Shown: in pieces, positions 2,604-32,148 of the stretch
How the letters are laid out: every line of letters starts with the position of its first letter
Position numbering within the stretch: position 1 is the stretch's first letter
From: a virus
Taxonomy: Duplodnaviria > Heunggongvirae > Uroviricota > Caudoviricetes
IMG/VR virus record: IMGVR_UViG_2541047882_000006
Direction: 5' to 3' (one strand)
DNA: 33,679 bases
Made by a program: the position numbers and the translations under genes
Notes under the pieces: generated by a model
Seen by the model: only the letters and a program-made list of their open reading frames with translations
Told to the model about the DNA's origin: nothing
Database searches by the model: none

Positions 2604-2780
2604 TTAACTGCCTTCAGTGTCCAGCACTGGCGTACTGTTCAGCAGCACGCTTTTTAATCCATCCACCGGACCTTCAACCGGCCCTTCGCTGATGGCATCG
2701 ATCACACTCAGCAACTGCGTGGACTTCAGGTTGTCCTTCGCTTCGCGCGGGGTATGCCCCTTACTGCTGCCTTTACCCAT
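2604..2780 (-). pseudogene. remnant of lambda J-type central tail fiber gene (first 58 codons, then stop)
   Basis: Reverse complement from 2780 translates [58 protein letters not shown]-stop, matching the N-terminus of lambda gpJ as I recall it and diverging right after TEG. A full J gene would encode over 1100 aa. Confidence 0.8.
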
Positions 2781-2840
2781 TCGTCATGCTCCATAAACGA
2801 CAAAACCGCCCGGAGGCGGTTTCACATAAAACATTTTGCA

Positions 2841-3488
2841 TCAGCGACCAATCACCACAACCTGACCACCGTCCCCTTCGTCTGCCGTGCTGATCTCCTG
2901 AGAAACCACCCGCGACCCCACACGCATTTCACCGTACAGAACAGGCAAAACATTGCCCTGAGCAACCATGTTATCCAGTGAGGAAAAATAGGTGTTCTGT
3001 TTGCCGTTATCTGTACTGGCTGCCGTGGACGTCCTGGCTTTCGGTGCCAGCATCTGCGCCACTCCGCCCAGGACCATACTGGCCCCTGCCGCATACATGC
3101 CCGATACAGCCGCGGCACCCAGCCAGCCCACAGGGTTCCACCATGCCACCGCAATCAGCGCCGCCCCAAGCACCACCTGAAACACACCGCCACTTTTAGC
3201 TCCCACCAGACGCGGCACGATGTGGATCACGGCACCATTTGCCAGCGGCTCATTAAGACGGGCAGACAATTCGGTTTCACCGGCATCACGCCCGGCAATG
3301 CGTACCTGATACCAGCCGTCGCTCAGTTTCTGACGAAACGCCGGGATCTGTATGGCCAGCGCCCGGATGGCTTCGGACCCCGTTTTCACTCGAAGGTCGA
3401 TGCGGCGGCCAAATCGTTGTAAATCCCCGTAAAGGCAGATGCGTGCCATGCCCGGTGACGCCAGAGGGAGTGTGTGCGTCGCTGCCAT
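2841..3488 (-). CDS. tail tip assembly protein I (lambda gpI-like)
   Basis: 215-aa track ORF; N-terminus MAATHTLPLASPGMARICLYGDLQRF and C-terminus near-identical to lambda gpI as recalled; sits between K and the J remnant in lambda order. Confidence 0.9.
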   Translation of the reverse strand: MAATHTLPLASPGMARICLYGDLQRFGRRIDLRVKTGSEAIRALAIQIPAFRQKLSDGWYQVRIAGRDAGETELSARLNEPLANGAVIHIVPRLVGAKSGGVFQVVLGAALIAVAWWNPVGWLGAAAVSGMYAAGASMVLGGVAQMLAPKARTSTAASTDNGKQNTYFSSLDNMVAQGNVLPVLYGEMRVGSRVVSQEISTADEGDGGQVVVIGR

Positions 3489-4129
3489 TTGTCGGTATAC
3501 CTCTCTCGTTTGCTCAGTTGTTCAGGAATATGGTGCAACAGCTCGCCGTCGCCGCAGTAAATGGCGGCATGATTCGGCACCGATGAACCAAAACAGCACA
3601 GCAGCACATCGCCCGGCTGGGCCGCTGACAACGGCACCTGATACAGCCCCGTTGCCTCCATATTATCCAGATAGAGATTCTGACCGTTACGCCACCAGTC
3701 ATCCTCGCGATGAAAATCCGGCATCTCAATCCCCGCCAGATGATAAGCATCCCGGAACAGCGTGTAACAGTCCGTCACCCCGTGCTCAAAGCGCCGCCCG
3801 GTGAGATGCGGCACACAGCGGAACTTATGAATTGTCCCCCGGCAGACCAGCCACCACGGCAAATCACTCTGCACCTGCAGCCGCCGGTCGGCCTCACTCA
3901 GCCAGGGCAGACCACCGGGGTGGCTGTGGACCAGCGCCACCACCTCACCCTGCATTTCTGCCTGCAGCCAGTCTTCCGGCGACATACGGAAATACGCCTC
4001 CGGCTCACCGGAGATATTCACGCAGGGGAAATATCTTTCCCCCTCCGGCGTGCTTACCACGAAGCCGCACGACTCCGCTGGCGCACATCGCCGGGCGTGC
4101 GCCAGAATCGCTGATTCTGTCTGTGTCAT
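3386..4129 (-). CDS. tail tip assembly protein K (lambda gpK-like, MPN/JAB plus NlpC/P60-type domains)
   Basis: Track ORF 3386-4171; start placed at the internal Met (MTQTESAILAHARRCAPAESCGFV), which matches the lambda gpK N-terminus. HSHPGG motif present. Overlaps I by about 100 nt, as in lambda. Confidence 0.85.
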   Translation of the reverse strand: MTQTESAILAHARRCAPAESCGFVVSTPEGERYFPCVNISGEPEAYFRMSPEDWLQAEMQGEVVALVHSHPGGLPWLSEADRRLQVQSDLPWWLVCRGTIHKFRCVPHLTGRRFEHGVTDCYTLFRDAYHLAGIEMPDFHREDDWWRNGQNLYLDNMEATGLYQVPLSAAQPGDVLLCCFGSSVPNHAAIYCGDGELLHHIPEQLSKRERYTDKWQRRTHSLWRHRAWHASAFTGIYNDLAAASTFE

Positions 4130-5170: not shown

Positions 5171-8100
5171 TTAACATTCCCCCATCACGTCGCATATTTA
5201 ACAGATTGCCCTGCACCCGCTGATCAACCATCCCCATAAGTGCTTTTATTGCCTGAGGGCCAATCTCTCCATTCTGGCCGTCATTTTGAATAGTGATTTG
5301 GTATACAGGGGCATAGGTAATATCTCCGCCTCCATTACCACTTTTACTATTAATAGCTCTGACACCAAGAGAACCATCGGAAGTTCGTGTTAATGGCATA
5401 ATGGCTTCCGGACCAGCCTCACCAAAAACACCAGCCCCTCTTGCAAAAGCAAAAAATTGCGGGGAATCATAAATACCGTTCGAATACGTGTTCAATGACG
5501 GAGACTCATAAACACCGCCCTTTGCATTCGGAATAAATTTACTAATAGCACTCCCGATAGTTCCTAAAATCCCCCCAGAAGAACTGTTACTAATGCTGTC
5601 GAAAATCCCAGTAATTGAAGCCTTTAATGCTATTCGACTAAGATCCGAAATCACGGAAGTAGCGAAAGAACGAAAATTTGCCTTGCCTGTCGTGACAAAA
5701 TCACCCAACGCATCGGTCATTCCATCAAACATCTGAGTCGTGGTTGATTTTATCTGCTCACTGATATCCTTAGTGTCATCCAGCCAGTTATTGAATCCCT
5801 GGGAGGCACCACTAACCCAGTCTCCTGCCTGAATATCGAGCTGCTCGTTTTTCTGTCTGACAATTTCTTTTTCTCGTTCCAGAGCATCATTCAGAGCCTG
5901 CATTTTCTCCTGAAAAACATGATTTGACATCCCACGGGATTTATCTGCATAGTCACGTTCAAGTTGCAGACGCTGATTGTTATATTCACGTTCAATCCGC
6001 AGTAATTCCTGCTGGCGTTGCTGATTTTTATCGCCAACCCCATAACCAGCAATCTGAATATCATACCCCTGTTGACGATTATCAATCGAAGCCTGCAATG
6101 AATCACGCCATGCAGCTATTTCGGCGGATTCCTTGATTAGCCTGTTATTTTTTTCAATCGCAACATTTTTCTCCATCAACGCGGTTATTTCTTCCCGGTG
6201 TAAGAGAAGCGATTTCTGATCCTGGGTTAATTTCGATGACGGTCGTGACTCCAGGTCGGCAATCTGCTGACGCCACTTAACCAGTTCCTGTTCAGAGGAA
6301 CTTAATTTAACGGTTAATTCAGTTTGTGAACTTAGTAACGCATTCTGTTGATTCAGATGATCAATCATTCGTTGGGCAGCATCATCCGAATAACCTTTCG
6401 CCTTTGGTTGCTTTGGATCTTTATAACGCTCATTTATTTGAGCGATAAAATTATTATATTCTTCCTTTGAATACTGACTCTTTAGCTTTTCCAGTTTTGC
6501 AAGTTCACTAGCTCTCTGCTGCTCCCGGGTCTGATATTGTTTTGAAAAGGCATCTGCTCTCTGTCTGAGTTCAATTCCTTCCTGTTGTCGCTTGTTGTAA
6601 TCGTTTATTGATGAATTTAGGACGTCCTGAGCAATTTTTTCTGCTTGAAGTACGCCCAATTGCTGCTTTAATCGTGCCAGCCTTTTATTTTGAGCTCCGC
6701 CATCTCCAATGCCACCTAACCCGAAAACTCCGGGTCGGGTATTTTTTTCTATTTCATCAATTTGACGGAGAACATCTGAGATTTTTTGATCAAGGGAGGC
6801 CTCACGGCCAATATCCAGCATGGAATCCCATGCCCATTTTGCGGAGTCTGCCACAGCTTTCCATGCAGTCTCAAGATAACCAAGATTTTCTTTAATCTGG
6901 TTGGTGCGCTGGATCATTGAGGATGAGTATGCTTCTGTCGCAATGCGGGCGGCCTCCTGCTGGTTCCCTTCATCCTGTAGCGCCTTAATCTGGTTATAAG
7001 TCGCAATTGTCAGAAAATGGTACTGATCATTAAGTTTTGATATGGCACTGACAGGATCCTTTGCAATTTCATTGAAGTCATTAACCAGTTGTTCGGTTGA
7101 TATTCCTGTTACTTCGCTCGTTTTTACTATCGCTGTCGTCACTTGCTCCAGCGAACTGCTCGCTACCTTTCCCGAACGCACAAGCTGGTTTAATACTGCC
7201 GCCGCAGCGCCAGTTGTCGAATCAGCCGCATTCCCGGCACGTTGAGCTATATCGGCCAATTGCCCGCTGGTTGTCCCCAACTGATTTCCGGTAAGAATAA
7301 GAGATTTATTAAATTCGTCCTGCTCCTGAGAGCCTTTATAGTAAGCCAGCCCTAAGACGCCAACGGCTGCTGCGGCCAGGGTAAAAGGATTAATTAATCC
7401 CAGCACATAAGAACCAACACCTTTGATCGCCGGGCCAATCCCACCGAACATATCTTTTAGCTGGCCGCCCTGCTGCATTAACACCATAAAAGGCGACTGA
7501 CCAGTGGACAACCCAACAACAATATCCGTCATTTGTGCAGGCAACATGCGCATAGCAAAAGCCGTTTGTTTTGCCGACATTCCGGTTTTGCTTAATTGAG
7601 ATTGAGTAACCTCAAGCTCACTCCGCATAGCACGAAGTTTTCCAGAAAGTTCCTCATACATTTCAGGAGAGAGCATCCCCTTAGCTTTTGCTTCATTGAG
7701 CTGTTTCTGTTGTTCTACCAGACGATTAAAAGCAGTTCCGACAGGGTCAAGTTGAGCAATCAGACGTTGCAAAGCAGCAACCTGTTCATCATGCGCTTTT
7801 GCTGCTTCTCGCTCTGCCTGAGCCTCTCCGGTAAGCTCTCGCCGTGTTTCCTGTATTTTTCGGCTATAATTCTCAAACTGAGAACCATTTATTTTCCCGG
7901 ATGCAAACGCAGCATTAAGTTCATCCTGCTGTTGTTCAAGATTTCTTAGCGCCGCAACCAGAGGGTCGATCTTGTCCAGCATTCTTTGAAAGGCCTGAGC
8001 CTGCGATTCCTGCTGGGCGGCAGCAAGTTTTCCGGCCTTCTCGGCTTCTCTCTGCGCTTGCGCAACCCCGCTCAATTCCTCTGTGGTTTCATTAAGTTTA

Positions 8101-8396
8101 CGGACAAGAAATTCATATTCTTCTTTATCAATAAGCCCTTTATCGAAAAATTTCTTTAATTCAGAATAGCGTCGACCGACAGTATCAATTGCGGCACCAA
8201 CTGGATCAATAGCTGCTTTTAATTTTGCGAGCGCGTTCTTCTCATCTTCTGTTGCCTTAGTCACTTTCCCTGCGCTATTTGCAGCAGTTTCCCCGGCCTG
8301 CGTCATTTTGACTAATGAGGAGGTCAGATTGTCAGCATTATTTTTTGCTCCAGTGCTATCAATAATTATTGCGAGACGCGAGGTTTGCTCTGCCAT
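5163..8396 (-). CDS. tail tape measure protein (gpH-like)
   Basis: 1077-aa track ORF; long coiled-coil N-terminal half with three ~65-aa tandem repeat units, hydrophobic central segment, C-terminal region resembling lambda gpH ([19 protein letters not shown]). Confidence 0.85.
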
Positions 8397-8420
8397 TTAT
8401 TAAAACTCCAGACAACAAAA

Positions 8421-8438
8421 AGCCCACCGAAGTGGGTT
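8421..8438 (-). terminator. terminator-like hairpin between T and H (minus-strand sense)
   Basis: Minus-strand RNA reads cccac-uucg-guggg followed by cuuuuuguugu: a short GC stem with a UUCG loop and a U-tract, about 25 nt upstream of the H start codon. Confidence 0.3.
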
Positions 8439-8559
8439 TCAGGCGACATAATAGTAGATATAGCGATTACGAGGCCACGCAATGCTTTTCTCCAGGAGCA
8501 TCATCGATTTAATTAAAGACACCATCACATCTCTGTAACAGAGTGTACGTAATTAACAA

Positions 8560-8880
8560 CTACACACACTGCTCCTGAAAATACTGGTCATCCAGTGCAA
8601 AGATCACTGCTTCAAACTCATCGCGCTCAATCAATACCGGATGAGTGGCTAAATATTCATTTATCTCTGTCAGAGATAAAGGCAAAGGCACCCCGGTCAT
8701 TCCAGCATAACGTCGGGCACGGGATATTACCGAATAGGCGTACAACAATTCCTTAAGCACCGGGTCTATTTCTGGTTCCGGTATCGGTGGCAACCTGAGT
8801 TTTTCTCGCTTCCATCTTGCCTTTTCCCCCCTTTCTCCCCCGAACTCCGATAACCACCGCTGGGCGGCTATGGCTTTTTT
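8560..8880 (-). CDS. tail assembly chaperone T segment, expressed as a G-T fusion by -1 programmed frameshift
   Basis: Track ORF 8560-8793 (TTG called as start). The same frame is open upstream through the G stop. A slippery heptamer A_AAA_AAG lies at 8874-8880 (minus strand), two codons before the G stop at 8868-8870. Confidence 0.65.
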   Translation of the reverse strand, partial: KKAIAAQRWLSEFGGERGEKARWKREKLRLPPIPEPEIDPVLKELLYAYSVISRARRYAGMTGVPLPLSLTEINEYLATHPVLIERDEFEAVIFALDDQYFQEQCV

Positions 8881-9317
8881 ATCGTATCCTGCTTCTGCTG
8901 CTCTTTACCCTGGGCGATGCTGGCTGCTTCTGCAAGGATCTGCCAGTACAACTCTGGATTCTGCTTAAGCAGCGCGATCCCTCGTTCTGGCGTATATTCC
9001 AGTGCAACCTCAGCACCATTAACCAGTTCACCAACCCCTTTCCAGTCTTTCAGCAGATAACGAGCAGCATTATCAATGAGTAAATCATCAACAGAATCTA
9101 CCTCGGAAACCTTTGAAATATCAAACTCCTTCGTTCCGACGTGCAAACTGGCATCCATTTTCTCAATGTGACGACGGATTAATGCATTACGGGAGCGATA
9201 CTGATCGTTATCGCTGCTTGCCACCAACAGTTTTAACCCGTCTACAGGTTTTAAGTCCTTCATTGGCGTAAACCAGCGTTCTCCACCGATGATAATTTTC
9301 TGATTAAGAATAAACAT
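8868..9317 (-). CDS. tail assembly chaperone G (lambda gpG-like)
   Basis: 149-aa track ORF directly upstream of the T frame and H in lambda order; ends with the slippery site; GAGG ribosome-binding site 7 nt upstream, inside the IS903 target duplication. Confidence 0.7.
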   Translation of the reverse strand: MFILNQKIIIGGERWFTPMKDLKPVDGLKLLVASSDNDQYRSRNALIRRHIEKMDASLHVGTKEFDISKVSEVDSVDDLLIDNAARYLLKDWKGVGELVNGAEVALEYTPERGIALLKQNPELYWQILAEAASIAQGKEQQKQDTIKKP

Positions 9318-9319
9318 CC

Positions 9320-9328
9320 ATAACCTCA
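9320..9328. repeat. 9-bp target site duplication ATAACCTCA (left copy) flanking IS903
   Basis: Identical 9-mer at 9320-9328 and 10386-10394, immediately outside the 18-bp terminal inverted repeats. Confidence 0.8.
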
Positions 9329-10385
9329 GGCTTTGTTGAATAAATCAGATTTCGGGTAAGTCTCCCCCGTAGCGGGTTGTGTTTTCAGGCAATACGCACG
9401 CTTTCAGGCATACCTGCTTTCGTCATTTTGTTCAGCGCTCGTACCAGGGCCATAGCCTCCGCAACCTGACCATCGTAGTCACGCAGCGTCAGTGAACCCC
9501 CGAACAGCTGTTTTACCCGGTACATCGCCGTTTCCGCTATCGAGCGACGGTTGTAATCTGTTGTCCATTTCCACCGCGCATTACTCCCGGTCATTCGCTG
9601 ATTAGCCACTGCACTGTTACGGTCTGCATATTCACCGGGCCAGTAACCCGCACCTTTTCGGGGAGGGATAAGGGCGCTGATTTTCTTACGCCGCAGTTCA
9701 TCGTGACAGAGCCGGGTGTCGTAAGCGCCGTCTGCCGATGCTGCCCTGATTTTTCTGTGAGTCTGCCGGATAAGACCCGGGAAGGCTTCTGAGTCCGTCA
9801 CATTGTTCAGCGACAGGTCTGCACAGATGATTTCATGTGTTTTACTGTCAACGGCGAGATGCAGCTTACGCCAGATACGGCGGCGTTCCTGGCCATGCTT
9901 TTTGACTTTCCACTCGCCTTCACCGAAGACCTTCAGCCCGGTGGAATCAATTACCAGGTGTGCGATTTCACCCCGGGTGGGCGTTTTGAAACTGACATTA
10001 ACCGACTTTGCGCGCTTGCTGACACTGGTGTAATCCGGGCAGCGCAACGGAACATTCATCAGTGTAAAAATGGAATCAATAAAACCCTGTGCAGCCCGCA
10101 GGGTCAACCTGAACACGCGTTTAATGACCAGAACGGTGGTGATGGCGAGATCAGAATAGCGCTGAGGTCTTCCCCGTGATGAAGGCGTTGTCGACTCATA
10201 CCAGGCCTGAATGGCTTCATCATCCAGCCAGAAAGTTATGGAGCCACGGTTGATGAGGGCTTTATTGTAGGTGGGCCAGTTGGTGATTTTGAACTTTTGC
10301 TTTGCCACGGAACGGTCTGCGTTGTCGGGAAGATGCGTGATCTGATCCTTCAACTCAGCAAAAGTTCGATTTATTCAACAAAGCC
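9329..10385 (-). mobile_element. IS903 (IS5 family) insertion sequence, complete
   Basis: 1057 bp bounded by perfect 18-bp inverted repeats GGCTTTGTTGAATAAATC (9329-9346) and GATTTATTCAACAAAGCC (10368-10385); one transposase ORF; 9-bp direct target duplication; length and repeats match IS903 as I recall it. Confidence 0.85.
9385..10308 (-). CDS. IS903 transposase (DDE, IS5 family)
   Basis: Track ORF 9385-10353 (322 aa from a TTG). Starting at the in-frame GTG (VAKQKFKITNWPTYNK) gives 307 aa; C-terminus MTKAGMPESVRIA recognised as IS903 transposase. Confidence 0.8.
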   Translation of the reverse strand: MAKQKFKITNWPTYNKALINRGSITFWLDDEAIQAWYESTTPSSRGRPQRYSDLAITTVLVIKRVFRLTLRAAQGFIDSIFTLMNVPLRCPDYTSVSKRAKSVNVSFKTPTRGEIAHLVIDSTGLKVFGEGEWKVKKHGQERRRIWRKLHLAVDSKTHEIICADLSLNNVTDSEAFPGLIRQTHRKIRAASADGAYDTRLCHDELRRKKISALIPPRKGAGYWPGEYADRNSAVANQRMTGSNARWKWTTDYNRRSIAETAMYRVKQLFGGSLTLRDYDGQVAEAMALVRALNKMTKAGMPESVRIA

Positions 10386-10394
10386 ATAACCTCA
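10386..10394. repeat. 9-bp target site duplication ATAACCTCA (right copy) flanking IS903
   Basis: See left copy. Confidence 0.8.
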
Positions 10395-10443
10395 TTCAAT
10401 GCGTCCCCCTGTAGTGCAGTACCACAGGGGGAATAACGGAAAA

Positions 10444-10872
10444 TCAACTAATCGCATCAGCACTGGCTTTTGCGATCACGGCAGTCGGGGAGCATTTTTT
10501 TCTGGTTGTCGGCTTTTTACCCTGAGCAACAAGCATCGCAAACTTAGCCTGCTGGTCAGAAATGCCGAATTCATCGGGACAGAACGAAAATTCCTCCGCG
10601 TCGCCCTCATTCAGGCCCGCATCGAATACTGGCTTTTTTTCCTGAGATTTTTCGTTCCGCTTTTGTGCAGTCTGCGCAGATTTTTTCTGCGCACTTTTTT
10701 GCGCAGTTTTGCACATTTCTGTCTGCGCATTTTTCGGAGTTTTTTTGATGTAACGACGGGCTGTTGCGTAATTCAGTCCCCTTGCTTCACACCATGCCAC
10801 CGGAGATATACCGGAGCGGGTGTATTCAGCAATATACTCCTGCTGCAACGCCCCCCAGTCCGGTCTGCTCAT
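10444..10872 (-). CDS. small-terminase-like DNA-binding protein (resembles Rac YdaY region)
   Basis: 142-aa track ORF; N-terminal helix-turn-helix-like segment (ISPVAWCEARGLNYATARRYIKK) followed by a basic, low-complexity tail. Assignment by sequence impression only. Confidence 0.45.
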   Translation of the reverse strand: MSRPDWGALQQEYIAEYTRSGISPVAWCEARGLNYATARRYIKKTPKNAQTEMCKTAQKSAQKKSAQTAQKRNEKSQEKKPVFDAGLNEGDAEEFSFCPDEFGISDQQAKFAMLVAQGKKPTTRKKCSPTAVIAKASADAIS

Positions 10873-10875
10873 CAG

Positions 10876-11127
10876 TTAGTCCTGATTTTTATCCACCCTG
10901 AGTAGTTCGCGCAGAGCAAAGGCATCCCCTTTTCTGGCAAGCTTAAACAATGCCGCTCGTAACTCGGCTTCACCTTTCGCTCTGCCCTTACGGATGGCCG
11001 CATAAAAATCTGTCATTGCTTCCCGATTTTCTTTCAGTCGGTTCAGATCAACATCCAGAACGTCAGCGATTTGTTGTGCAGTCATCCGGCACGCTGCCAG
11101 AGACTCGACTTTCGAATACGGAATCAT
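10876..11127 (-). CDS. small HTH protein (resembles Rac YnaK / terminase small subunit N-terminal fragment)
   Basis: 83-aa track ORF; TAQQIADVLDVDLNRLKENREAMTDFY resembles terminase small-subunit DNA-binding domains. Confidence 0.45.
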   Translation of the reverse strand: MIPYSKVESLAACRMTAQQIADVLDVDLNRLKENREAMTDFYAAIRKGRAKGEAELRAALFKLARKGDAFALRELLRVDKNQD

Positions 11128-11995
11128 TTGTCACCCCCATTGATATGCAGGGTGTCTTCTTCCTGTATTTTTCGTGAAGGATTTTTACTGCAGCGTTGTT
11201 CCAGGTGACCTGATGGTGAATGCGTTTATGGCTGGCACCCATCAGTGAGATTTTTACGCACGACGGCGCATACATGACGGAGTAAAAACTTTTAACGTAG
11301 GTTCCGGAATCCAGATACAGCTCGGTCATTCCGCCGCTGTTTTTCTGCGTCTGTTTCTGCCCTAACTGGACAGCACCGATCGTCATAAACAATTCACCAC
11401 AGCGACCGAGATTCGTGTACGTATTCACATCCTCGTTAATGCGCCCCATGAATGAGAACGGTCGATCAACCGAACAGATAAAGCTGTTCATTGCCTTGCG
11501 TTTCACCCACGAAGCATGGCCGCCATTGTCACCAAGAAAATCCCCGCCCTGCGACATAGCGATGGAAAGAGCAGGTATTGATTCGTAGTACGCCAGCATT
11601 TCAGAAAGGATCGCATCCAGTTTCCTTATCGGAAAATAGGCCTGGTCATAGTTGCGATCCACCCGAAACTGGAACTCGTGATAATCATCATCGAGCTGAA
11701 TGAAGTATTTACACCCGACCAGTTTTGCCAGGTCGAAACAGGCATTACGGGCGTAAAAAATTGAGCGGCGGTCACAGAAATTATCGGCTTCGTCAAAACG
11801 ACTGGCGATATCGGCTTTGGAAAACACCAGCACCTGTTCACCAAATTCAGCCATGTACTGATGCCGTGTCTTATCTTCATCATCAACAACGATAAAAATT
11901 TTCCCGGTATAGCCAGCACGACGCAACGTCCGGTAAGTCAGAACTTTGTCCGGTCGCCCGTGAGTCAGAATAAAGGCGCAAAAATCATCACGCAT
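11063..11995 (-). CDS. hypothetical 310-aa protein, possibly a nucleotide-sugar transferase-like (GT-A-like) fold
   Basis: Track ORF 11063-12016; start moved to the internal ATG (MRDDFCAF) preceded by GGAGG and overlapping the ParB-like stop (ATGCGTGA), suggesting translational coupling. Two acidic DxD-like motifs (FIVVDDEDK, IQLDDDYHEF). Fold assignment is speculative. Confidence 0.5.
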   Translation of the reverse strand: MRDDFCAFILTHGRPDKVLTYRTLRRAGYTGKIFIVVDDEDKTRHQYMAEFGEQVLVFSKADIASRFDEADNFCDRRSIFYARNACFDLAKLVGCKYFIQLDDDYHEFQFRVDRNYDQAYFPIRKLDAILSEMLAYYESIPALSIAMSQGGDFLGDNGGHASWVKRKAMNSFICSVDRPFSFMGRINEDVNTYTNLGRCGELFMTIGAVQLGQKQTQKNSGGMTELYLDSGTYVKSFYSVMYAPSCVKISLMGASHKRIHHQVTWNNAAVKILHEKYRKKTPCISMGVTNDSVFESRVSGSVPDDCTTNR

Positions 11996-12779
11996 ATTCC
12001 TCCTCCTCACCACCATGCATGATCTCCACCATGCGCTGCGTCATCCGGACAAATCCATTTTCAATAGCCTGCTGATAATCAATGATCACCAGCGCCGACT
12101 CCTCGAAAAAACACTGAATTTCAGCGGGGGCGTGAGCGTAATAGTCCGCAATTCTGCTGAAATTAAACACCGTGTGACGTTCTGCCGCACACAGGAGGAA
12201 TTTCTCAATATCAGGCTCAAGGGACGCCGAACGTATCCGGCTGATCAGCTCCTGAGTTTTCGTATCGTCGTACAGTTCACTGATATCCGGTTTACCGCCC
12301 GACGGCTCATAAACAGGCGTATCAATTTTCGTCGTATACGGCTCCTCCTCATTTCCTGTACCGGGCAAAACATCCGTCAACAGTTCATCAATTTCTGTCG
12401 GGATGAAGCCTGTCAGGGAGACATCAAAATCAGCATTGATTAGGTCCGACAGCTCCATCCGCAACAGATCTTCATCCCAGCCAGCATTCATCGGCAGGCG
12501 ATTATCTGCCAGGCGGTACGCCTGTTTCTGCTCATCCGTCAGGCCAGACAGAACAATGACCGGAACAGAATCCATTTTGAGCATTTCAGCCGCCATAACA
12601 CGACCGTGACCCGCAATAATTTCGCCCTTTTCGTCAATCAGCACCGGATTAGTCCAGCCGAATTGCTTAATACTTTCTACCAGTTGTGCCACCTGCTCAG
12701 TACTGTGCGTCCTGGCGTTGTGCGCATACGGTGACAATTCTTGTAATGGGCGATAGACTATCTTTAATTTCTCGCTCAT
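11988..12779 (-). CDS. ParB-like nuclease domain protein (ParB/sulfiredoxin N-terminal fold) with C-terminal extension of unknown function
   Basis: 263-aa track ORF; ParB N-terminal-domain hallmarks (PLQELSPYAHNARTHS, IIAGHGR, QAYRLADNRL); AAGG ribosome-binding site upstream of the ATG. Confidence 0.7.
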   Translation of the reverse strand: MSEKLKIVYRPLQELSPYAHNARTHSTEQVAQLVESIKQFGWTNPVLIDEKGEIIAGHGRVMAAEMLKMDSVPVIVLSGLTDEQKQAYRLADNRLPMNAGWDEDLLRMELSDLINADFDVSLTGFIPTEIDELLTDVLPGTGNEEEPYTTKIDTPVYEPSGGKPDISELYDDTKTQELISRIRSASLEPDIEKFLLCAAERHTVFNFSRIADYYAHAPAEIQCFFEESALVIIDYQQAIENGFVRMTQRMVEIMHGGEEEEYA

Positions 12780-12916
12780 ACAGCCTTGCTTTATGAATAA
12801 AACGCACCCCAGCAGCCAGTGCTACTGGGGACGGAGGTGTTGCTGGTAAAGTTAGGTATTGGATCAATGAGTGAGTCAACATAATATTAAACTCACAATT
12901 ATAAATCAGCCATATA

Positions 12917-14374
12917 TTAGGAGCGCCAAAAAAAACCTGAAAACAATATAATAACAGGATAAATTTCAAGGCGACCAAGAATCATAGCTATGCACATTAA
13001 ACATTTTGCAATGTCATTAAGCACTCCGAATGACGATGCAGTAGCCCCAAAACCTAATCCCATATTATTAATACATGCAGCCACTGTTGCAAATGATGTA
13101 AGAAAATCATATCCCATACCATTTAACACCAGTATAAAAAACACCGTGAAGAGAGTATAAAGAAAAAAGAAACTCCATACAGACCTCATTACACGATCTG
13201 TAACTATCTTCCCTCCTACATTTACACTCAACAACGCTCTGGGATGAGAAAGCTGATTTATCTCGTGTTTGCTTTGTTTGAAAAGTATAAGAAATCGAAG
13301 TGACTTAATTCCACCACAAGTTGAACCTATACATCCCCCAAAGAAACTTGACAACAGCAAAAACACTATCGTATGCGTGGGCCAACTTGCATAATCCTGC
13401 GTAGCTAAACCATTATCAGTGAGCATGGAGCTGGCAAGAAAAAACGAATGAATAAAACTTCCATGCAAGTCATACATACCTATATGCCAGACCTGGAAAG
13501 AGGTAACAATGATCACCCCTAAGGCTATTAACAGAAAGAAACGAAGTTCAATATCTCTGATTAAAGGTTTTATCGTTTTCCTGCTAATAACAATATACCA
13601 AAGAGTGAAGTTGAAAGCCGATAGCAGGGAAAAAGAACCAGCCACCAGCTCAACCAAATAGTTATTAAAATATCCGATACTCTCGCTATGAGTTGAGAAA
13701 CCACCAAGCGAAACTGTGGAAATCCCGTGACAAATAGCATCAAACAAAGGCATTCCTGCAAGTCTATAACAGACAATACAAGCAATACCTAATAAAGAAT
13801 AAGTTATCCACAGTGTCCGTGACGTATCGGCCAGGCGGGGAGTGAGTTTGTCATCCTTAAATGGCCCCGGCATTTCTGACTGATAAAGCTTTGCACCACC
13901 AATACCCAATAATGGCAATACAGCAACCGCCAGAACAATAACTCCTAAACCACCTATAAAATTTAACTGTGACCGATAGTACAAATATGCCCGAGGTAAT
14001 GAACTAACATCATCAATTACAGTTGCTCCTGTTGTTGTTATTCCAGAAACCCCTTCAAACAGAGCATCAATGAACGTTAAATTAAGTTCTGAGTCAATCC
14101 ATAAAGGGAATGCACTAATAACAGAAAACAAAATCCAAAACATTACAATTATAATAAACCCATCACGGGTACGTAATTGAATGCCAGATTTCTTAGTTGT
14201 ATACCACGCTCCGCCACCAATGCAAAAAAATATAACGAAAGTTATAAAGAAAACGAACAGGCTTTTTTCTTTATAAAACAATGCTACAACCATTGGTGGC
14301 AACATTGAAAGACTATAGAGCCAAACCAGGAACCCACACATATGAGTAACAACTCTTACATGAGATGTATTCAT
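12917..14374 (-). CDS. trkG: Trk-system potassium uptake protein TrkG (prophage-borne TrkH paralog)
   Basis: Track ORF 12917-14392; start placed at MNTSHVRVVTHMCGFLVW to match K-12 TrkG (485 aa as recalled); polytopic membrane protein; AT-rich. Confidence 0.9.
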   Translation of the reverse strand: MNTSHVRVVTHMCGFLVWLYSLSMLPPMVVALFYKEKSLFVFFITFVIFFCIGGGAWYTTKKSGIQLRTRDGFIIIVMFWILFSVISAFPLWIDSELNLTFIDALFEGVSGITTTGATVIDDVSSLPRAYLYYRSQLNFIGGLGVIVLAVAVLPLLGIGGAKLYQSEMPGPFKDDKLTPRLADTSRTLWITYSLLGIACIVCYRLAGMPLFDAICHGISTVSLGGFSTHSESIGYFNNYLVELVAGSFSLLSAFNFTLWYIVISRKTIKPLIRDIELRFFLLIALGVIIVTSFQVWHIGMYDLHGSFIHSFFLASSMLTDNGLATQDYASWPTHTIVFLLLSSFFGGCIGSTCGGIKSLRFLILFKQSKHEINQLSHPRALLSVNVGGKIVTDRVMRSVWSFFFLYTLFTVFFILVLNGMGYDFLTSFATVAACINNMGLGFGATASSFGVLNDIAKCLMCIAMILGRLEIYPVIILFSGFFWRS

Positions 14375-14511
14375 ATCTAAATATTCTTTCAATTATAACC
14401 ACCTTGCTGCAATATTATGATTATACTGTATAAAATTTAACTCCTCTTAGATCTTACTTCACTGTTCCTTATGAAACAATCATCAAAATGAATCATATTG
14501 TAGTTAAGATT

Positions 14512-14976
14512 TTACTTTAAACACTGCTCGGTTATGTATTGCTGAGCACCTTCAAGTTGGGCCTGCATCATTACCAGTCGTTCCCGGAGGGTGAAATAAT
14601 CCCGTTCAGCGGTGTCTGCCAGTCGGGGGGAGGCTGCATTATCCACGCCGGAGGCGGTGGTGGCTTCACGCACTGACTGACAGACTGCTTTGATGTGCAA
14701 CCGACGACGACCAGCGGCAACATCATCACGCAGAGCATCATTTTCAGCTTTCGCATCAGCTAACTCCTTCGTGTATTTTGCATCGAGCGCAGCAATATCA
14801 CGCTGACGCATCTGCATGTCAGTAATTGCCGCGTTCGCCAGCTTCAGTTCTCTGGCATTTTTGTCGCGCTGGGCTTTGTAGGTAATGGCGTTATCACGGT
14901 AATGATTAACAGCCCATGACAGGCAGACGATGATGCAGATAACCAGAGCGGAGATAATCGCGGTTACTCTGTTCAT
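14512..14976 (-). CDS. i-spanin Rz
   Basis: Track ORF 14512-14988; start at [17 protein letters not shown] (N-terminal transmembrane helix) directly after the endolysin stop; coiled-coil periplasmic domain; contains the embedded Rz1 frame. Confidence 0.8.
14571..14756 (-). CDS. o-spanin Rz1 (outer-membrane lipoprotein), embedded in Rz in the +1 frame
   Basis: 61-aa track ORF; lipobox LVVVGC; proline-rich mature region ([16 protein letters not shown]); fully nested in Rz as in lambda and phage 21. Confidence 0.75.
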
Positions 14977-16911: not shown

Positions 16912-17849
16912 TTTTCCTCACATATGTCATATAGTAAAGGATTATATATACCGTTGTTTTGGACGCTCAAACAGCGAATCAGATCAAATAAAACGCACAT
17001 TTGTTAACATTTACACAAAGTCTGCGTGGGATATTCTGAAAGAATATCCATAATGTGGAGAGAATCTATTGAAGTGCATGGTGCCGGGTGCCTCCCGGTG
17101 AACAAAATGTTCGTGATACCTGTCGGCGACAGAAAAGGTTAATGGTATCACCCCACCGCACAGGGGGATTCACCATGCAGGAGTTTTCTTAGCAAACTCA
17201 CTGCGCGCCCGGCAACTCCCAACCACATAAAAATGCGGAGTTTGTGGCATTTATGCATATAACTCGCAGGAATTATCTTAAAAAACTGATGTCGATCCGG
17301 ATTAAAAAGAAGCAGGTCATCATCAGATGACTGGAAAAAAGGAAAACAAAAAATACTCATCATACAGTTTTGATTGCAGGGATGAGCCTGCTATGCACAA
17401 TATGCAGAATATAAGCAAGATAAAAATATGCAGGCATATTATTTCGGATTTTGTTATTAACACAACCTTTTTAATAATCATTTGGCATACAATAAACCAG
17501 CCCAGAAAGAACCGCCTAAACAGGCGGTTGGTCAATACAAAGGATGCTTCGTCTTTATTATAGTAATCTGAGGCGTCGGGTGTCTTGTATCAGACAACAT
17601 ATTGTCCCGCTAAACAGCGAATTACAAACCACCCTGCAATGATCTCTCATCTCATTTTATATGAGTTGACGACATCAGGATAACGCATCATCAGCCCCTG
17701 CCAAGAAATATCAAAACTCCCGCCAGCAATGTGTTATCACAATATTGTAAAAAAAACACAGCACCGAAACTATAACTGGTCTCTGTTATAATTTGGAGCA
17801 GAAAGACCAGTTGCCCAACTAGCAGCATTCTCCCCTGCTTTCCTGACGT

Positions 17850-19801: not shown

Positions 19802-22066
19802 TTATACGGAAACTGGCACACGAGCAGGCAATGGATAGTGAGCCCAGTTATTAGCATTTAAAGCTCTTACACCATCAGCATAAACTTGTGTGTTTCCATC
19901 TAATGATTTTAAAGTTACTACAATAGTTACAGGTAAAGGCTCCATTAAGGCCGGTTCATTCGCTCTCAACGTTGTTTTAGCCTGAAGAGCCCAGTTACCC
20001 GAAGTAATTCCTTTATTAAATGCCTTGCGATGAATTTTTACTGGTGACCACTTTCCACCATGCTCAATTTGAGCTCTCTCATATCCAGATTGACCGTTTT
20101 CTCCTTCCATAGGCACTTTTCCTTTTATAGTATTATTCTCAATTAAGCCAAAACTTAGCTCTACGTTCGCGCGAACATATTCACTGCCGGCATTAGGGTT
20201 TAGTGGTGGTGCATATGCAGCAGTAATTACAATCTCACCTTTAAATTTTCCATTTTGAATAAGTGCCGATGGTATGGGATAGTTTTCCTTTCTCCACCTC
20301 ACCCCAGGAACCAAGAATGTTTGGAAAATCAGAGTAAACCTATCATCACTATCATATAAGGTCTCAATAACCTCATTAGGAATTCCCGCTCCCAAATAGC
20401 GTCTTTCACTTGGCGAGTAATCAGGAGAAGATAATTGAGCGGAATGAATTAATAATGCTTTAATCAATGATGGTGAAACATTAAAGTCTGAATTAGTGGC
20501 TATTCTCTGCCATGTATGCGCAGCTAAACTTGCCACAATTGGAGCAGCAAAACTAGTACCAAAATTAGAGCAAAGCCTATTATCTGGCCCTACGACCTTT
20601 AAACTGCTTGCTCCTACATTCCAAGGTCTATGAACCCCACCGCCAGCATGGATTATATCTGGCTTTGGAGTAAATACAGGCCCAGGGCCACGACGAGTAT
20701 ATGGTGTCGGTGTTCCAATTTCACTTAAAGCATCATTAGCTTCCATATGAGAAACTGAACCAACTGTTAGTGCTCGGACTGACTCTCCAGGAGAGGAAAT
20801 TAAATCAGCACCTCCAAGCGGATCAGGATTTGGCCATGTACGTATAGGTTCATCTACATAATTACCTGCAGCAACTACAAACAAAATACCAAATTTATCG
20901 CTGAGCCGATCTAACTCCATCGCAAAATCACTAAACATCTGCTCATTACATGGTCCGCCTCCCAAAGACAAATTCCAGACTTTTATATCTGGTCTTTTAT
21001 TTACAGCATCTGCTAGCCTCAGAATTAAATCTGATATATAAGATCCATTTTCATCTAAAGCACAAACATCATGGATTTTAGATTTTGTATCAGGAATCCA
21101 TGGATGATTGTCATTTAAAAAATGAGCGCCTGATATCAATGAAGACACCATAGTCCCATGTTCATAACTCGTATCAGGAGGAATTACGTATGTTTCCCTA
21201 CTCACTACCCAAGGAGTAATTGTTGCCGCGATGGGGCTTACCCCAGTGTCAAATACAGCAACAATGGGTAATTCTTCTGATGGTACGGGAAAGCTATTTG
21301 TTTCAATGCCAACAGAATCACTTACACTAACCGGGAATGCTGAATATTTTGGTTCTGGAATTAACGTTCTTATACCCGGGTAATCAATGAGAATGTCTAA
21401 TATATATCTATCACTTGGGGATAAATCCATTATCCTTAATAAGGGAAGACCACATTTTTGTCTAATTTCATCATATTTAACTCCGTATTGTTCTAATATA
21501 GAAATAACGTTTTCATAGTTGTTGTAAGTTGCATCTTCACCTGTGTACTCAAATAGTCGTACAAGGATGTTTGATGATTCAAACAAACCATCAGTGCCTC
21601 CCGGAACCTTCCTATTCTCATCCCAAGGTTCAATGCGCTCAATCGCGCTTAGATTAGCCAAAATCGCTTTAATATTCCGATTTAAAATGACTGACTCTAA
21701 TACGTCAAAACAGCCGGCATGAGCAGCAACCAACATTTCATCTATTTTGGCATGACCGGCATTTTGCAATCCAGCCTCTTGAGCAATTTTGTTCGGCCTA
21801 TGCGTTTTGGCTATTCCCTGGTCTCTTAATTTGAAAACCAAAGTACCCAAGCTTCCAGGGTACTCTGAAAGTTTGGATTCTAAATAATGTTTACTGGTTG
21901 TTAAATTTCTTACTAGCCCTTGTCTATATTCGGCTGTTACATCAACCAATACCTTTGCCCCACCGCCAGCGTTTACTATTGCACCCAAGTCACTACTGGA
22001 AAAAGGGATTCTTAACGTTGGGTTTGTAACTTTTGCGTTACTAAACTGTGTACCCCTTCTGCTCAT
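19802..22066 (-). CDS. subtilisin-like serine protease (peptidase S8) with large N- and C-terminal extensions; IetS-like
   Basis: 754-aa track ORF; S8 motifs in order D (VAVFDTGVS, ~aa 273), H (YEHGTMVSS, ~303), N (VVAAGNY, ~402), S (GTSFAAPIVASLAAH, ~505); no N-terminal signal peptide; AGGAG ribosome-binding site; start overlaps the upstream ATPase gene by 26 nt. Confidence 0.8.
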   Translation of the reverse strand: MSRRGTQFSNAKVTNPTLRIPFSSSDLGAIVNAGGGAKVLVDVTAEYRQGLVRNLTTSKHYLESKLSEYPGSLGTLVFKLRDQGIAKTHRPNKIAQEAGLQNAGHAKIDEMLVAAHAGCFDVLESVILNRNIKAILANLSAIERIEPWDENRKVPGGTDGLFESSNILVRLFEYTGEDATYNNYENVISILEQYGVKYDEIRQKCGLPLLRIMDLSPSDRYILDILIDYPGIRTLIPEPKYSAFPVSVSDSVGIETNSFPVPSEELPIVAVFDTGVSPIAATITPWVVSRETYVIPPDTSYEHGTMVSSLISGAHFLNDNHPWIPDTKSKIHDVCALDENGSYISDLILRLADAVNKRPDIKVWNLSLGGGPCNEQMFSDFAMELDRLSDKFGILFVVAAGNYVDEPIRTWPNPDPLGGADLISSPGESVRALTVGSVSHMEANDALSEIGTPTPYTRRGPGPVFTPKPDIIHAGGGVHRPWNVGASSLKVVGPDNRLCSNFGTSFAAPIVASLAAHTWQRIATNSDFNVSPSLIKALLIHSAQLSSPDYSPSERRYLGAGIPNEVIETLYDSDDRFTLIFQTFLVPGVRWRKENYPIPSALIQNGKFKGEIVITAAYAPPLNPNAGSEYVRANVELSFGLIENNTIKGKVPMEGENGQSGYERAQIEHGGKWSPVKIHRKAFNKGITSGNWALQAKTTLRANEPALMEPLPVTIVVTLKSLDGNTQVYADGVRALNANNWAHYPLPARVPVSV

Positions 22067-23195
22067 ATGCTCCTGACTCCTTCAGAATGTTTGAAATTAC
22101 TCTTGATGTAAGTTTGTACAAATTAGCAAGAACTCTGATAGAAAATAATTTTTTATCTTTAGAACGTAACCAACGAATTTCATCTTCGTAAGTGCTTAAA
22201 TTTACACCTTCCATAAGCGATTGAGCAAGATACAAACGCCTATACAATTTGTGGTGATTTATCACACTTGCACCTTCAATAACTGCATCCCTACGTGCAT
22301 CCAAGCTCACCTGTTCAATTATTGCTCCGGATAATCCTTCCGATTTTCTTGATAAATCACTTAAATCTAGATCGCTACATATCATATTCTTTAAACGATT
22401 TTTCCAAATTAACTCTCTCTGATGTATGTCAGGCAGAGGCATTGGAATTCTGAAGCTAAATCGCCTCCAGATTGCAGGATCCAGAAGTTGCTCATGGTTA
22501 GTTGAGGCAATAATTACCGTATCCTCTGATGCCGCATCCATATTCTGCAATAGTGAAATGACAACTCGCTGAAGCTCACCTATATCTCTCTCATTACCTC
22601 TTGCTCCAGCTAAAGCATCAAATTCGTCTAAAAAAAGCACTGATGGCCTCTGCATTACATAATCGAAAACCTGTCTAAGATTTTTGCTGGTTTGTCCCAA
22701 TAAACTACTAATCAAAGTATCGCAACGCACTGTAAGAAGTGGAAAATCTAAGCGGGTAGCGATGTACTTAGATAACATAGTCTTACCTGTTCCTGGCTTT
22801 CCATACACGAGCATACGACTCGGCAATGCTGCATCAGCTTTAACAAACTCATCATAACGTTGAACATTAGTGATAAACTCTTCAACACGGGTACTGATTG
22901 CTGCAGGCAGAAAAATCTCTGAACTGTCTAATTTAGGATAACTGACATCAACAGTGTTGAGTCGACTATCAATATCTACCGGTAATGAGCCCAGAGATAT
23001 CCCACCTCCAGCCCTTTGAGCTCCTGCCAACGCCTGGGGAGCTCTAAGCAACCTTTCTCTTATCATTCTGGCTTGCTTGACCTCCCCTTTTTGTTCGAGC
23101 TTATCTGCCAGCAACCCAGCATAATTACTAGCCATCGAAGCATTTGCCTTTGTTGCACCTTCAATGATTTTTAACACTTCTGATAAATAATCCAT
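22041..23195 (-). CDS. AAA+ ATPase; IetA-like
   Basis: 384-aa track ORF; Walker A GKPGTGKT (~aa 132-139), Walker B VLFLDEFD (~185-192), sensor-1 IIASTNH, arginine pair WRRF; ~125-aa N-terminal and ~130-aa C-terminal non-ATPase regions. Confidence 0.8.
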   Translation of the reverse strand: MDYLSEVLKIIEGATKANASMASNYAGLLADKLEQKGEVKQARMIRERLLRAPQALAGAQRAGGGISLGSLPVDIDSRLNTVDVSYPKLDSSEIFLPAAISTRVEEFITNVQRYDEFVKADAALPSRMLVYGKPGTGKTMLSKYIATRLDFPLLTVRCDTLISSLLGQTSKNLRQVFDYVMQRPSVLFLDEFDALAGARGNERDIGELQRVVISLLQNMDAASEDTVIIASTNHEQLLDPAIWRRFSFRIPMPLPDIHQRELIWKNRLKNMICSDLDLSDLSRKSEGLSGAIIEQVSLDARRDAVIEGASVINHHKLYRRLYLAQSLMEGVNLSTYEDEIRWLRSKDKKLFSIRVLANLYKLTSRVISNILKESGAYEQKGYTV

Positions 23196-31751: not shown

Positions 31752-31946
31752 ATGAGATATGACAATGTTAAACCATGTCCATTTTGTGGTTGTCCATCAG
31801 TAACGGTGAAAGCCATTTCAGGATATTACCGAGCGAAGTGTAACGGATGCGAATCCCGAACCGGTTATGGTGGAAGTGAAAAAGAAGCACTCGAAAGATG
31901 GAATAAACGAACCACTGGAAATAATAATGGAGGTGTTCATGTATAA
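31752..31946 (+). CDS. ralR: restriction alleviation protein / type I toxin RalR (Lar)
   Basis: Track ORF 31713-31946; start at MRYDNVKPCPFCGCPSVTVKA gives the 64-aa K-12 RalR; Cys-rich. Confidence 0.85.
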   Translation: MRYDNVKPCPFCGCPSVTVKAISGYYRAKCNGCESRTGYGGSEKEALERWNKRTTGNNNGGVHV

Positions 31947-32148
31947 AATTACCGCCACTATTGAAAAGGAAGGTGGCACTCCTACTAACTGGACAAGATA
32001 TTCAAAATCTAAACTAACGAAATCAGAATGCGAAAAAATGCTCTCAGGTAAAAAAGAAGCAGGCGTTTCCAGAGAGCAGAAAGTAAAACTGATAAATTTT
32101 AATTGCGAGAAACTTCAGTCCTCGAGAATTGCATTGTATTCAAATTAA
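31939..32148 (+). CDS. ydaC: YdaC
   Basis: Track ORF 31867-32148; start at MYKITATIEKEGG preceded by GGAGG; overlaps the ralR stop. Confidence 0.7.
   Translation: MYKITATIEKEGGTPTNWTRYSKSKLTKSECEKMLSGKKEAGVSREQKVKLINFNCEKLQSSRIALYSN

Follow-up and report, generated by a model that had tools for sequence, protein, structure and literature searches.

An intact insertion sequence (IS) of the IS903 group entered a Rac-type prophage remnant by simple insertion, after an unrelated deletion had removed 9,242 bp from the same prophage. We assign this account as a whole a probability of about 0.93. The analysis covered a stretch of 33,679 nucleotides (the window), and all coordinates given without further specification refer to it. 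The element, its mode of insertion, and this kind of defective prophage are each already known, and the biological consequence is small, as a very common enterobacterial IS has landed in a decaying prophage. The case nevertheless provides a clean worked example in which two decay events are ordered within one prophage lineage, and it allows the element, its target duplication, the hybrid terS::tube open reading frame (ORF), and a G/GT-type frameshift site to be labelled correctly in annotation.

In the series of events reconstructed here, a deletion at a short microhomology, unrelated to the IS, first removed 9,242 bp, with the head genes and nearly all of the tail tube gene. The DDE transposase would subsequently have bound both 18-bp ends of the element and transferred them to target strands cleaved with a 9-bp stagger, a chemistry that is established for IS903 and for DDE transposases. 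The target was a 60-bp spacer separating what remains of the tube gene from a ydaY-type tail chaperone gene, and repair of the gaps would have duplicated ATAACCTCA, restoring a GAGG ahead of the chaperone gene.

Structure of the element and its target duplication

The element is complete, occupies positions 9329 to 10385 on the minus strand (1,057 bp), and carries a transposase gene that is co-directional with the prophage tail genes. It is bounded by GGCTTTGTTGAATAAATC at the end far from the transposase start (9329 to 9346, plus strand) and by the perfect 18-bp counterpart of this sequence near the transposase start (10368 to 10385, minus strand). The two inverted repeats match at 18 of 18 positions and diverge beyond them, and the same ends are present in the copies from P7, HK022, and pSC101. 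When the 33.7-kb window was searched for the 18-mer with up to 3 mismatches, the two IS ends were the only matches, with 0.07 expected by chance.

Both flanking 9-mers are ATAACCTCA, the gene-proximal copy at 9320 to 9328 and the distal copy at 10386 to 10394; the chance of such identity is 4^-9, or about 4e-6. A repeat finder reports 11 identical bases in this region, CCATAACCTCA, the extra CC on the right-hand side being the last two bases of the IS. That exactly 9 bp were duplicated is established by empty-site alleles in related genomes (loci L001, L011, L013, and L014), which have a single copy. The 9-mer reads TGAGGTTAT on the coding strand and includes GAGG at 9327 to 9324. The coding-strand junction consists of CAACAAAGCC, TGAGGTTAT, GG, and ATG in that order, with the ATG of the chaperone gene at 9317, such that the IS ends 11 bp upstream of this start codon and the duplicate stops 2 bp before it. 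A preliminary description of this DNA had reported a complete 1,057-bp element with perfect 18-bp ends, a 307-amino-acid (aa) transposase starting at GTG, and an intact 9-bp duplication, and each of these features was recovered at the coordinates it gave, the 9-mers being identical on both sides.

The transposase ORF runs on the minus strand from the GTG at 10308 to a stop at 9385 (9385 to 10308) and encodes 307 aa; reading from an upstream TTG at 10353, a start often chosen by annotation pipelines, yields 322 aa. The protein matches the Pfam families DDE_Tnp_1_5 (3.8e-39) and DDE_Tnp_1 (1.2e-32) and carries D, D, and E at positions 121, 193, and 259. We take D121, D193, and E259 to be the catalytic residues in the numbering of IS903; a literature search found no publication supporting this numbering. 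The identical 322-aa product occurs at three sites on plasmid CP099088.1 and at least four sites on chromosome CP098183.1, and the presence of one protein at several different sites in other strains indicates that this transposase variant has been mobile recently. The copy in the window looks transposition-competent, which agrees with the earlier view that it is active: its transposase appears functional, and the same variant is multicopy, at differing sites, elsewhere. An intact copy of this kind could in principle set off more rearrangements or inactivate genes in the host strain; in Klebsiella, IS903B inactivates mgrB (PMC8796155).

Affiliation within the IS903 group

Its length of 1,057 bp, its 18-bp ends, its 9-bp duplication, and its single 307-aa DDE transposase place the element in the IS903 group, within the IS5 family. 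The ISfinder convention treats as isoforms those copies that exceed roughly 90% identity in DNA or 95% in protein. Relative to the IS903 of phage P7 (AF503408), the element shows 95.4% nucleotide identity and differs at 9 of 307 aa (298 of 307 identical), values that reach the isoform range, and relative to the IS903 of HK022 (NC_002166), it shows 95.1% identity and 8 differences in 307 aa. The P7 and HK022 copies have the same length, 18-bp ends, 9-bp duplication, and GTG-initiated 307-aa transposase but differ from it in sequence, making the element an isoform of them. IS102 of pSC101 is likewise equal in length, ends, and architecture but stands further away, at 94.4% nucleotide identity with 13 of 307 aa changed.

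Among the annotated copies aligned, the closest come from Klebsiella. A copy labelled "IS903B family" by the PGAP annotation is 99.1% identical in nucleotide sequence, with 2 of 307 aa different, and one labelled "IS903 family" is 98.7% identical, with 6 of 307 aa different. The variant represented by such copies, compared under the label IS903B (98.7 to 99.1% identity), is widespread on Klebsiella and E. coli plasmids. A megablast search of plasmids with the element matched at least 5,000 records, mostly from Klebsiella and Escherichia, and 100% identical copies among the matches listed include those on E. coli plasmids CP099088.1 and AP027635.1. Members of the 90% protein cluster are named either "IS5 family" or "IS5-like element IS903B family" transposase. 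The element is absent from the first 50 kb of plasmid Rts1, from which Tn2680 and IS903.B derive. The IS903B reference is X02527, with 1,057 bp and a 307-aa ORF (PMC8796155), and IS903B copies on Klebsiella plasmids average 98.7% identity to it (PMC8796155).

The ISfinder name of the element is thus most probably IS903B, a name that rests on annotated copies and on PGAP labels that are themselves inconsistent: the copy labelled IS903B in strain ET5 is 99.5% identical to the HK022 element labelled IS903 and just 95.4% identical to the element in the window. The earlier identification as IS903 holds at the level of the IS903 group and the IS5 family, and it needs refinement at the level of the isoform, where identity is about 95% to annotated IS903 and about 99% to copies that carry the IS903B label.

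Uninterrupted sites in related genomes

Several sources display the target before insertion. E. coli phages with names beginning vB_EcoS- and Salmonella phage SPF_0923 match both flanks of the element, spanning 1,646 bp (1,529 + 126 - 9). In phage 683R6, read at base level, AACATCC is followed by a single ATAACCTCA and then by TTCAATGCG. A query rebuilt without the IS returned 282 records at 99% identity or above in complete E. coli genomes and, among the matches listed, was contiguous over the site at 99.8% identity. The IS itself was present at this site in 0 of 5,426 complete E. coli genomes.

Closer relatives were located through the hybrid terS::tube ORF created by the deletion, the exact sequence of which served as a unique marker that was looked up in public assemblies and checked at base level. 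The Logan contigs of ERR3328240 and SRR11462841 carry the same deletion, lack the IS, and have one TGAGGTTAT, with 3 mismatches over 8.2 kb. Two further assemblies have the insertion: scaffold KE701672.1 of GCA_000460335.1 is 100% identical to window positions 6444 to 14872, IS included, and a Logan contig of SRR958583, which is present in 4 samples, crosses the same junction and breaks off after 30 bp of IS sequence, as expected of a short-read assembly with the same insertion.

Because the near-isogenic assemblies and other E. coli have an uninterrupted site with one 9-mer, the insertion is a simple and recent transposition. This had been proposed earlier, in preference to an IS-mediated deletion, from the flanking repeats of the window; the empty sites now demonstrate it directly, and comparison with related strains lacking the insertion, run on assemblies, gave an uninterrupted site with a single 9-mer.

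Order of the deletion and the insertion

Upstream of the IS lies a hybrid ORF of 142 aa (10444 to 10872, minus strand), in which residues 1 to about 122 of the small terminase subunit, TerS, continue in frame into the C-terminal 20 residues of the tail tube protein. Residues 1 to 122 match phrog_51, terminase small subunit. Positions 10386 to 10511 comprise the last 68 bases of the tube gene, stop codon included, and its downstream spacer, with homology to the tube region ending 121 bp past the IS, and from position 10507 on, the window has the sequence of the small-terminase gene of strain ET5 at 100% identity. TGTCG, at 10507 to 10511, is common to the alignment with the tube region and the alignment with terS, and this microhomology marks the deletion junction. 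Strain 144, which is intact, has 9,242 bp that are absent here. The loss takes in two thirds of terS, then terL, the genes for the portal, a minor head protein, a DUF6651 protein, and the major capsid protein, five small head-tail genes, the tail terminator gene, and all of the tail tube gene except 20 codons. The terS::tube junction was spanned in 0 of 5,426 complete E. coli genomes.

Given that ERR3328240 and SRR11462841 have the deletion without the IS, the deletion preceded the IS and was not caused by it; these assemblies show an order of deletion first and insertion second, as read from their sequences, and precise excision of IS903 is rare. A causal role for the IS, whether through an IS-mediated adjacent deletion or through recombination between two copies, might be suspected from the position of the deletion junction, just 121 bp from the IS end, and from the precedent of strain ET5, in which an IS903B copy lacking a target duplication truncates the same prophage in terL, beside uspF. 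Such a role was rejected and is extremely improbable: the IS in the window retains its 9-bp duplication, 112 bp of tail tube DNA and the duplicate stand between its end and the junction, and the junction itself is a terS/tube microhomology with no IS end in it, while the sister assemblies carry the scar free of the IS. An equally slim chance attaches to the idea that the placement of the IS is an assembly artefact, arising from a repeat that was collapsed or misplaced in a draft scaffold. GCA_000460335.1 is a scaffold-level assembly, and short-read assemblies tend to break at IS copies, as contig L015 illustrates. The independent Logan assembly SRR958583, however, reads 30 bp into the IS across the right-hand junction, the empty-site alleles join the two flanks with no base gained or lost, and both ends of the IS carry a perfect 9-bp duplication, which a misjoin would not produce.

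The tail chaperone gene and its translation signals

The gene immediately downstream of the IS (8868 to 9317, minus strand) encodes a tail assembly chaperone of the ydaY family, with 149 aa, and is a functional analogue of lambda G. It matches phrog_313, "tail assembly chaperone," at 1e-46 and PF27119 Phage_YdaY. Searched against Pfam at an E value of 0.01 or below, the 149-aa protein matched no family, that of lambda G included, so the chaperone is regarded as an analogue of lambda G and not as a member of its family. In intact relatives, the gene order is tail tube, ydaY, and tape measure; in the window, only the last 20 codons of the tube gene remain.

A canonical slippery heptamer, A AAA AAG, is present at 8880 to 8874, with the -1 frame running free of stops between 8904 and 8563. 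The extension in this frame (8560 to 8904, minus strand), entered from the heptamer, would form the T part of a predicted G-T fusion; it matches phrog_1189 at 4.8e-37 and, below threshold, Phage_TAC_18 (20.8 bits against a cutoff of 27 bits). The heptamer and the open -1 frame together indicate that this ydaY-type pair has a G/GT arrangement. As in lambda G/GT, the gene has the tail tube gene on one side and the tape-measure gene on the other, a heptamer near its 3' end, and an overlapping -1 ORF; unlike lambda G, the chaperone belongs to phrog_313 and PF27119 Phage_YdaY. The description of this gene as tail chaperone G was accordingly right as to its type, a G/GT-type chaperone, and imprecise as to its family, which is ydaY rather than lambda G. 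The predicted G-T-like fusion product would be about 250 aa long. In relatives, PGAP annotates a ydaY of just 119 aa and leaves the frameshift product unannotated.

The IS had also been described as lying within the ribosome-binding site of this gene. The duplicated 9-mer does include the GAGG, but the site is not disrupted: since the 9-mer carries the Shine-Dalgarno sequence of the chaperone gene, its duplication restores GAGG at the native spacing, leaving GAGG-TTATGG-ATG unchanged with a 6-nucleotide (nt) spacer. The translation signals of the chaperone gene remain intact.

An inverted repeat between the tube stop codon and the Shine-Dalgarno sequence of the chaperone could form a stable stem-loop (10404 to 10432, minus strand), with the IS 9 nt downstream. 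Its predicted folding energy is -23.9 kcal/mol (z = -3.3), no U-tract follows it, and it is conserved. The stem-loop may stabilise an mRNA 3' end or act in attenuation, setting the ratio of tube to chaperone.

Effects on the downstream tail genes

For the chaperone gene, the change brought about by the insertion is the placement of 1,057 bp of co-oriented IS DNA between the gene and any upstream promoter. A scan of positions 8700 to 11200 predicted no terminator-like site inside the IS on the transcribed strand, and promoter-like and terminator-like sites in this interval were no more numerous than in shuffled sequence. With nothing above the shuffles in the scan of 8700 to 11200, the sequence offers no evidence for polarity or for an outward promoter. 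On general grounds, the IS may exert polarity on the tail genes that remain downstream. As the head genes, the tail terminator, and the tube have been lost and the tail-tip gene J is truncated, neither particles nor tails could be made with or without the IS. The prophage remnant that received the IS was already dead, so phage production is unaffected by the insertion.

This context also bears on the significance of the insertion. The preliminary description held that the IS separates the genes G-T-H-M-L-K-I from upstream transcription. The interposition is real, but the working late operon that the statement implies is not, given the 9,242-bp deletion and the cut in J. It is very unlikely, on these grounds, that the IS is a consequential polar mutation that silences the tail genes of an otherwise functional prophage: every late promoter upstream of the chaperone-TMP-M-L-K-I genes is indeed on the far side of the element, and IS elements within operons are commonly polar, but the prophage lacks terL, the portal, capsid, and connector genes, the tail terminator, and the tail tube, its J is truncated, the Shine-Dalgarno sequence and its spacing are kept, and the transcribed strand of the IS has no predicted terminator-like site. 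More doubtful still is a selected regulatory change, in which read-through from the IS's own promoter, or insulation by the IS, would serve a chaperone-TMP-M-L-K-I block co-opted by the host for a nonvirion role; a weaker variant of this idea would treat the region as a hotspot for IS903-group elements. The reading preferred here remains a simple insertion into a prophage that was already defective.

Choice of target site

The preferred-target motif of IS903 is WTTYA-N9-TRAAW (PMC2577343, Table 1). The insertion site agrees with this motif at 5 of 10 flanking positions, a score that about 30% of positions in the IS-less window equal or exceed, and the motif was rejected as an explanation for the choice of site. 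The poor agreement, which marks this as no favoured target of IS903, does not speak against the insertion itself.

Other strains carry IS903-group insertions in the same prophage (LR-48, GDSC2239PM, and ET5; positions 3001 to 4056 of the retrieved loci L002, L003, and L004). In LR-48 and GDSC2239PM, IS102-like elements form simple insertions inside the T part of the chaperone gene, LR-48 with the 9-bp duplication GCTTCCATC and GDSC2239PM with ATTCATCGC; both copies are nearer to IS102 (95%) than to the element in the window (89.5%). In ET5, an IS903B copy without a duplication cuts terL short beside uspF and looks like the product of an IS-adjacent deletion. Three independent simple insertions of IS903-group elements, in different strains, lie within about 700 bp. 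As the query that brought up the other insertions was itself centred on this region, they give no ground for claiming enrichment, and an IS903-group hotspot in the tail-chaperone region of Rac-type prophages was rejected on account of this ascertainment bias.

The Rac-type prophage

The host of the IS is a Rac-type prophage in an E. coli chromosome. Signatures of Rac in the window include RalA, recE and recT (Exonuc_VIII and RecT), Phage_integrase, trkG (TrkH), a homologue of ynaK (ParB_N), and ydaY; the window stops within the prophage on the integrase side. The RalA antitoxin small RNA (31945 to 32123, minus strand) matches its Rfam model at gathering level with 225 bits. Two other Rfam matches at gathering level, also on the minus strand, are IS009 at 256 to 454 (223 bits) and STnc100 at 17022 to 17208 (87 bits). 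The potassium transporter gene trkG (12917 to 14392, minus strand; TrkH family, 5e-145) separates the lysis cassette from the packaging genes, the same position as in the Rac prophage of K-12. Lysozyme and lysis genes and a TAGT-type glycosyltransferase gene are also present, and the chaperone gene is followed by a full-length tape-measure gene (1,077 aa) and then by M, L, K, and I.

The K-12 Rac prophage, with its trkG, ynaK, ydaY, and tmpR region, is defective through the loss of head genes. The prophage in the window shares with it the integrase, RalA, recT, recE, the lysis genes, trkG, the ynaK homologue, ydaY, and the tape measure, but differs in having full-length ydaY, tape-measure, M, L, K, and I genes, the terS::tube scar, and an IetAS module. 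Only about 58 codons remain of the tail-tip gene J (2607 to 2783, minus strand), with homology to the intact relative ending at 2611; the tail module has thereby undergone another loss or replacement, distinct from the 9,242-bp deletion. Beyond the J remnant lies a tail-fibre ORF of 546 aa (797 to 2437) with Collar and gp37_C domains.

The early region contains a pair of genes (19802 to 23195, minus strand) for an AAA-ATPase of 384 aa and a subtilase of 754 aa. These proteins match the anti-phage defence proteins IetA and IetS (PADLOC, 8.9e-143 and 1.7e-300), and the pair is a predicted IetAS defence module carried by this Rac-type prophage. Between trkG and terS (11063 to 12779, minus strand), the gene for a ParB_N protein of 263 aa overlaps that for a homologue of the TET-associated glycosyltransferase TAGT (3.8e-35; phrog_842). 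The N terminus of the ParB_N protein also resembles type II methyltransferase models (PADLOC, 4e-38), and the two genes may constitute a DNA-modification module of Rac-type phages.
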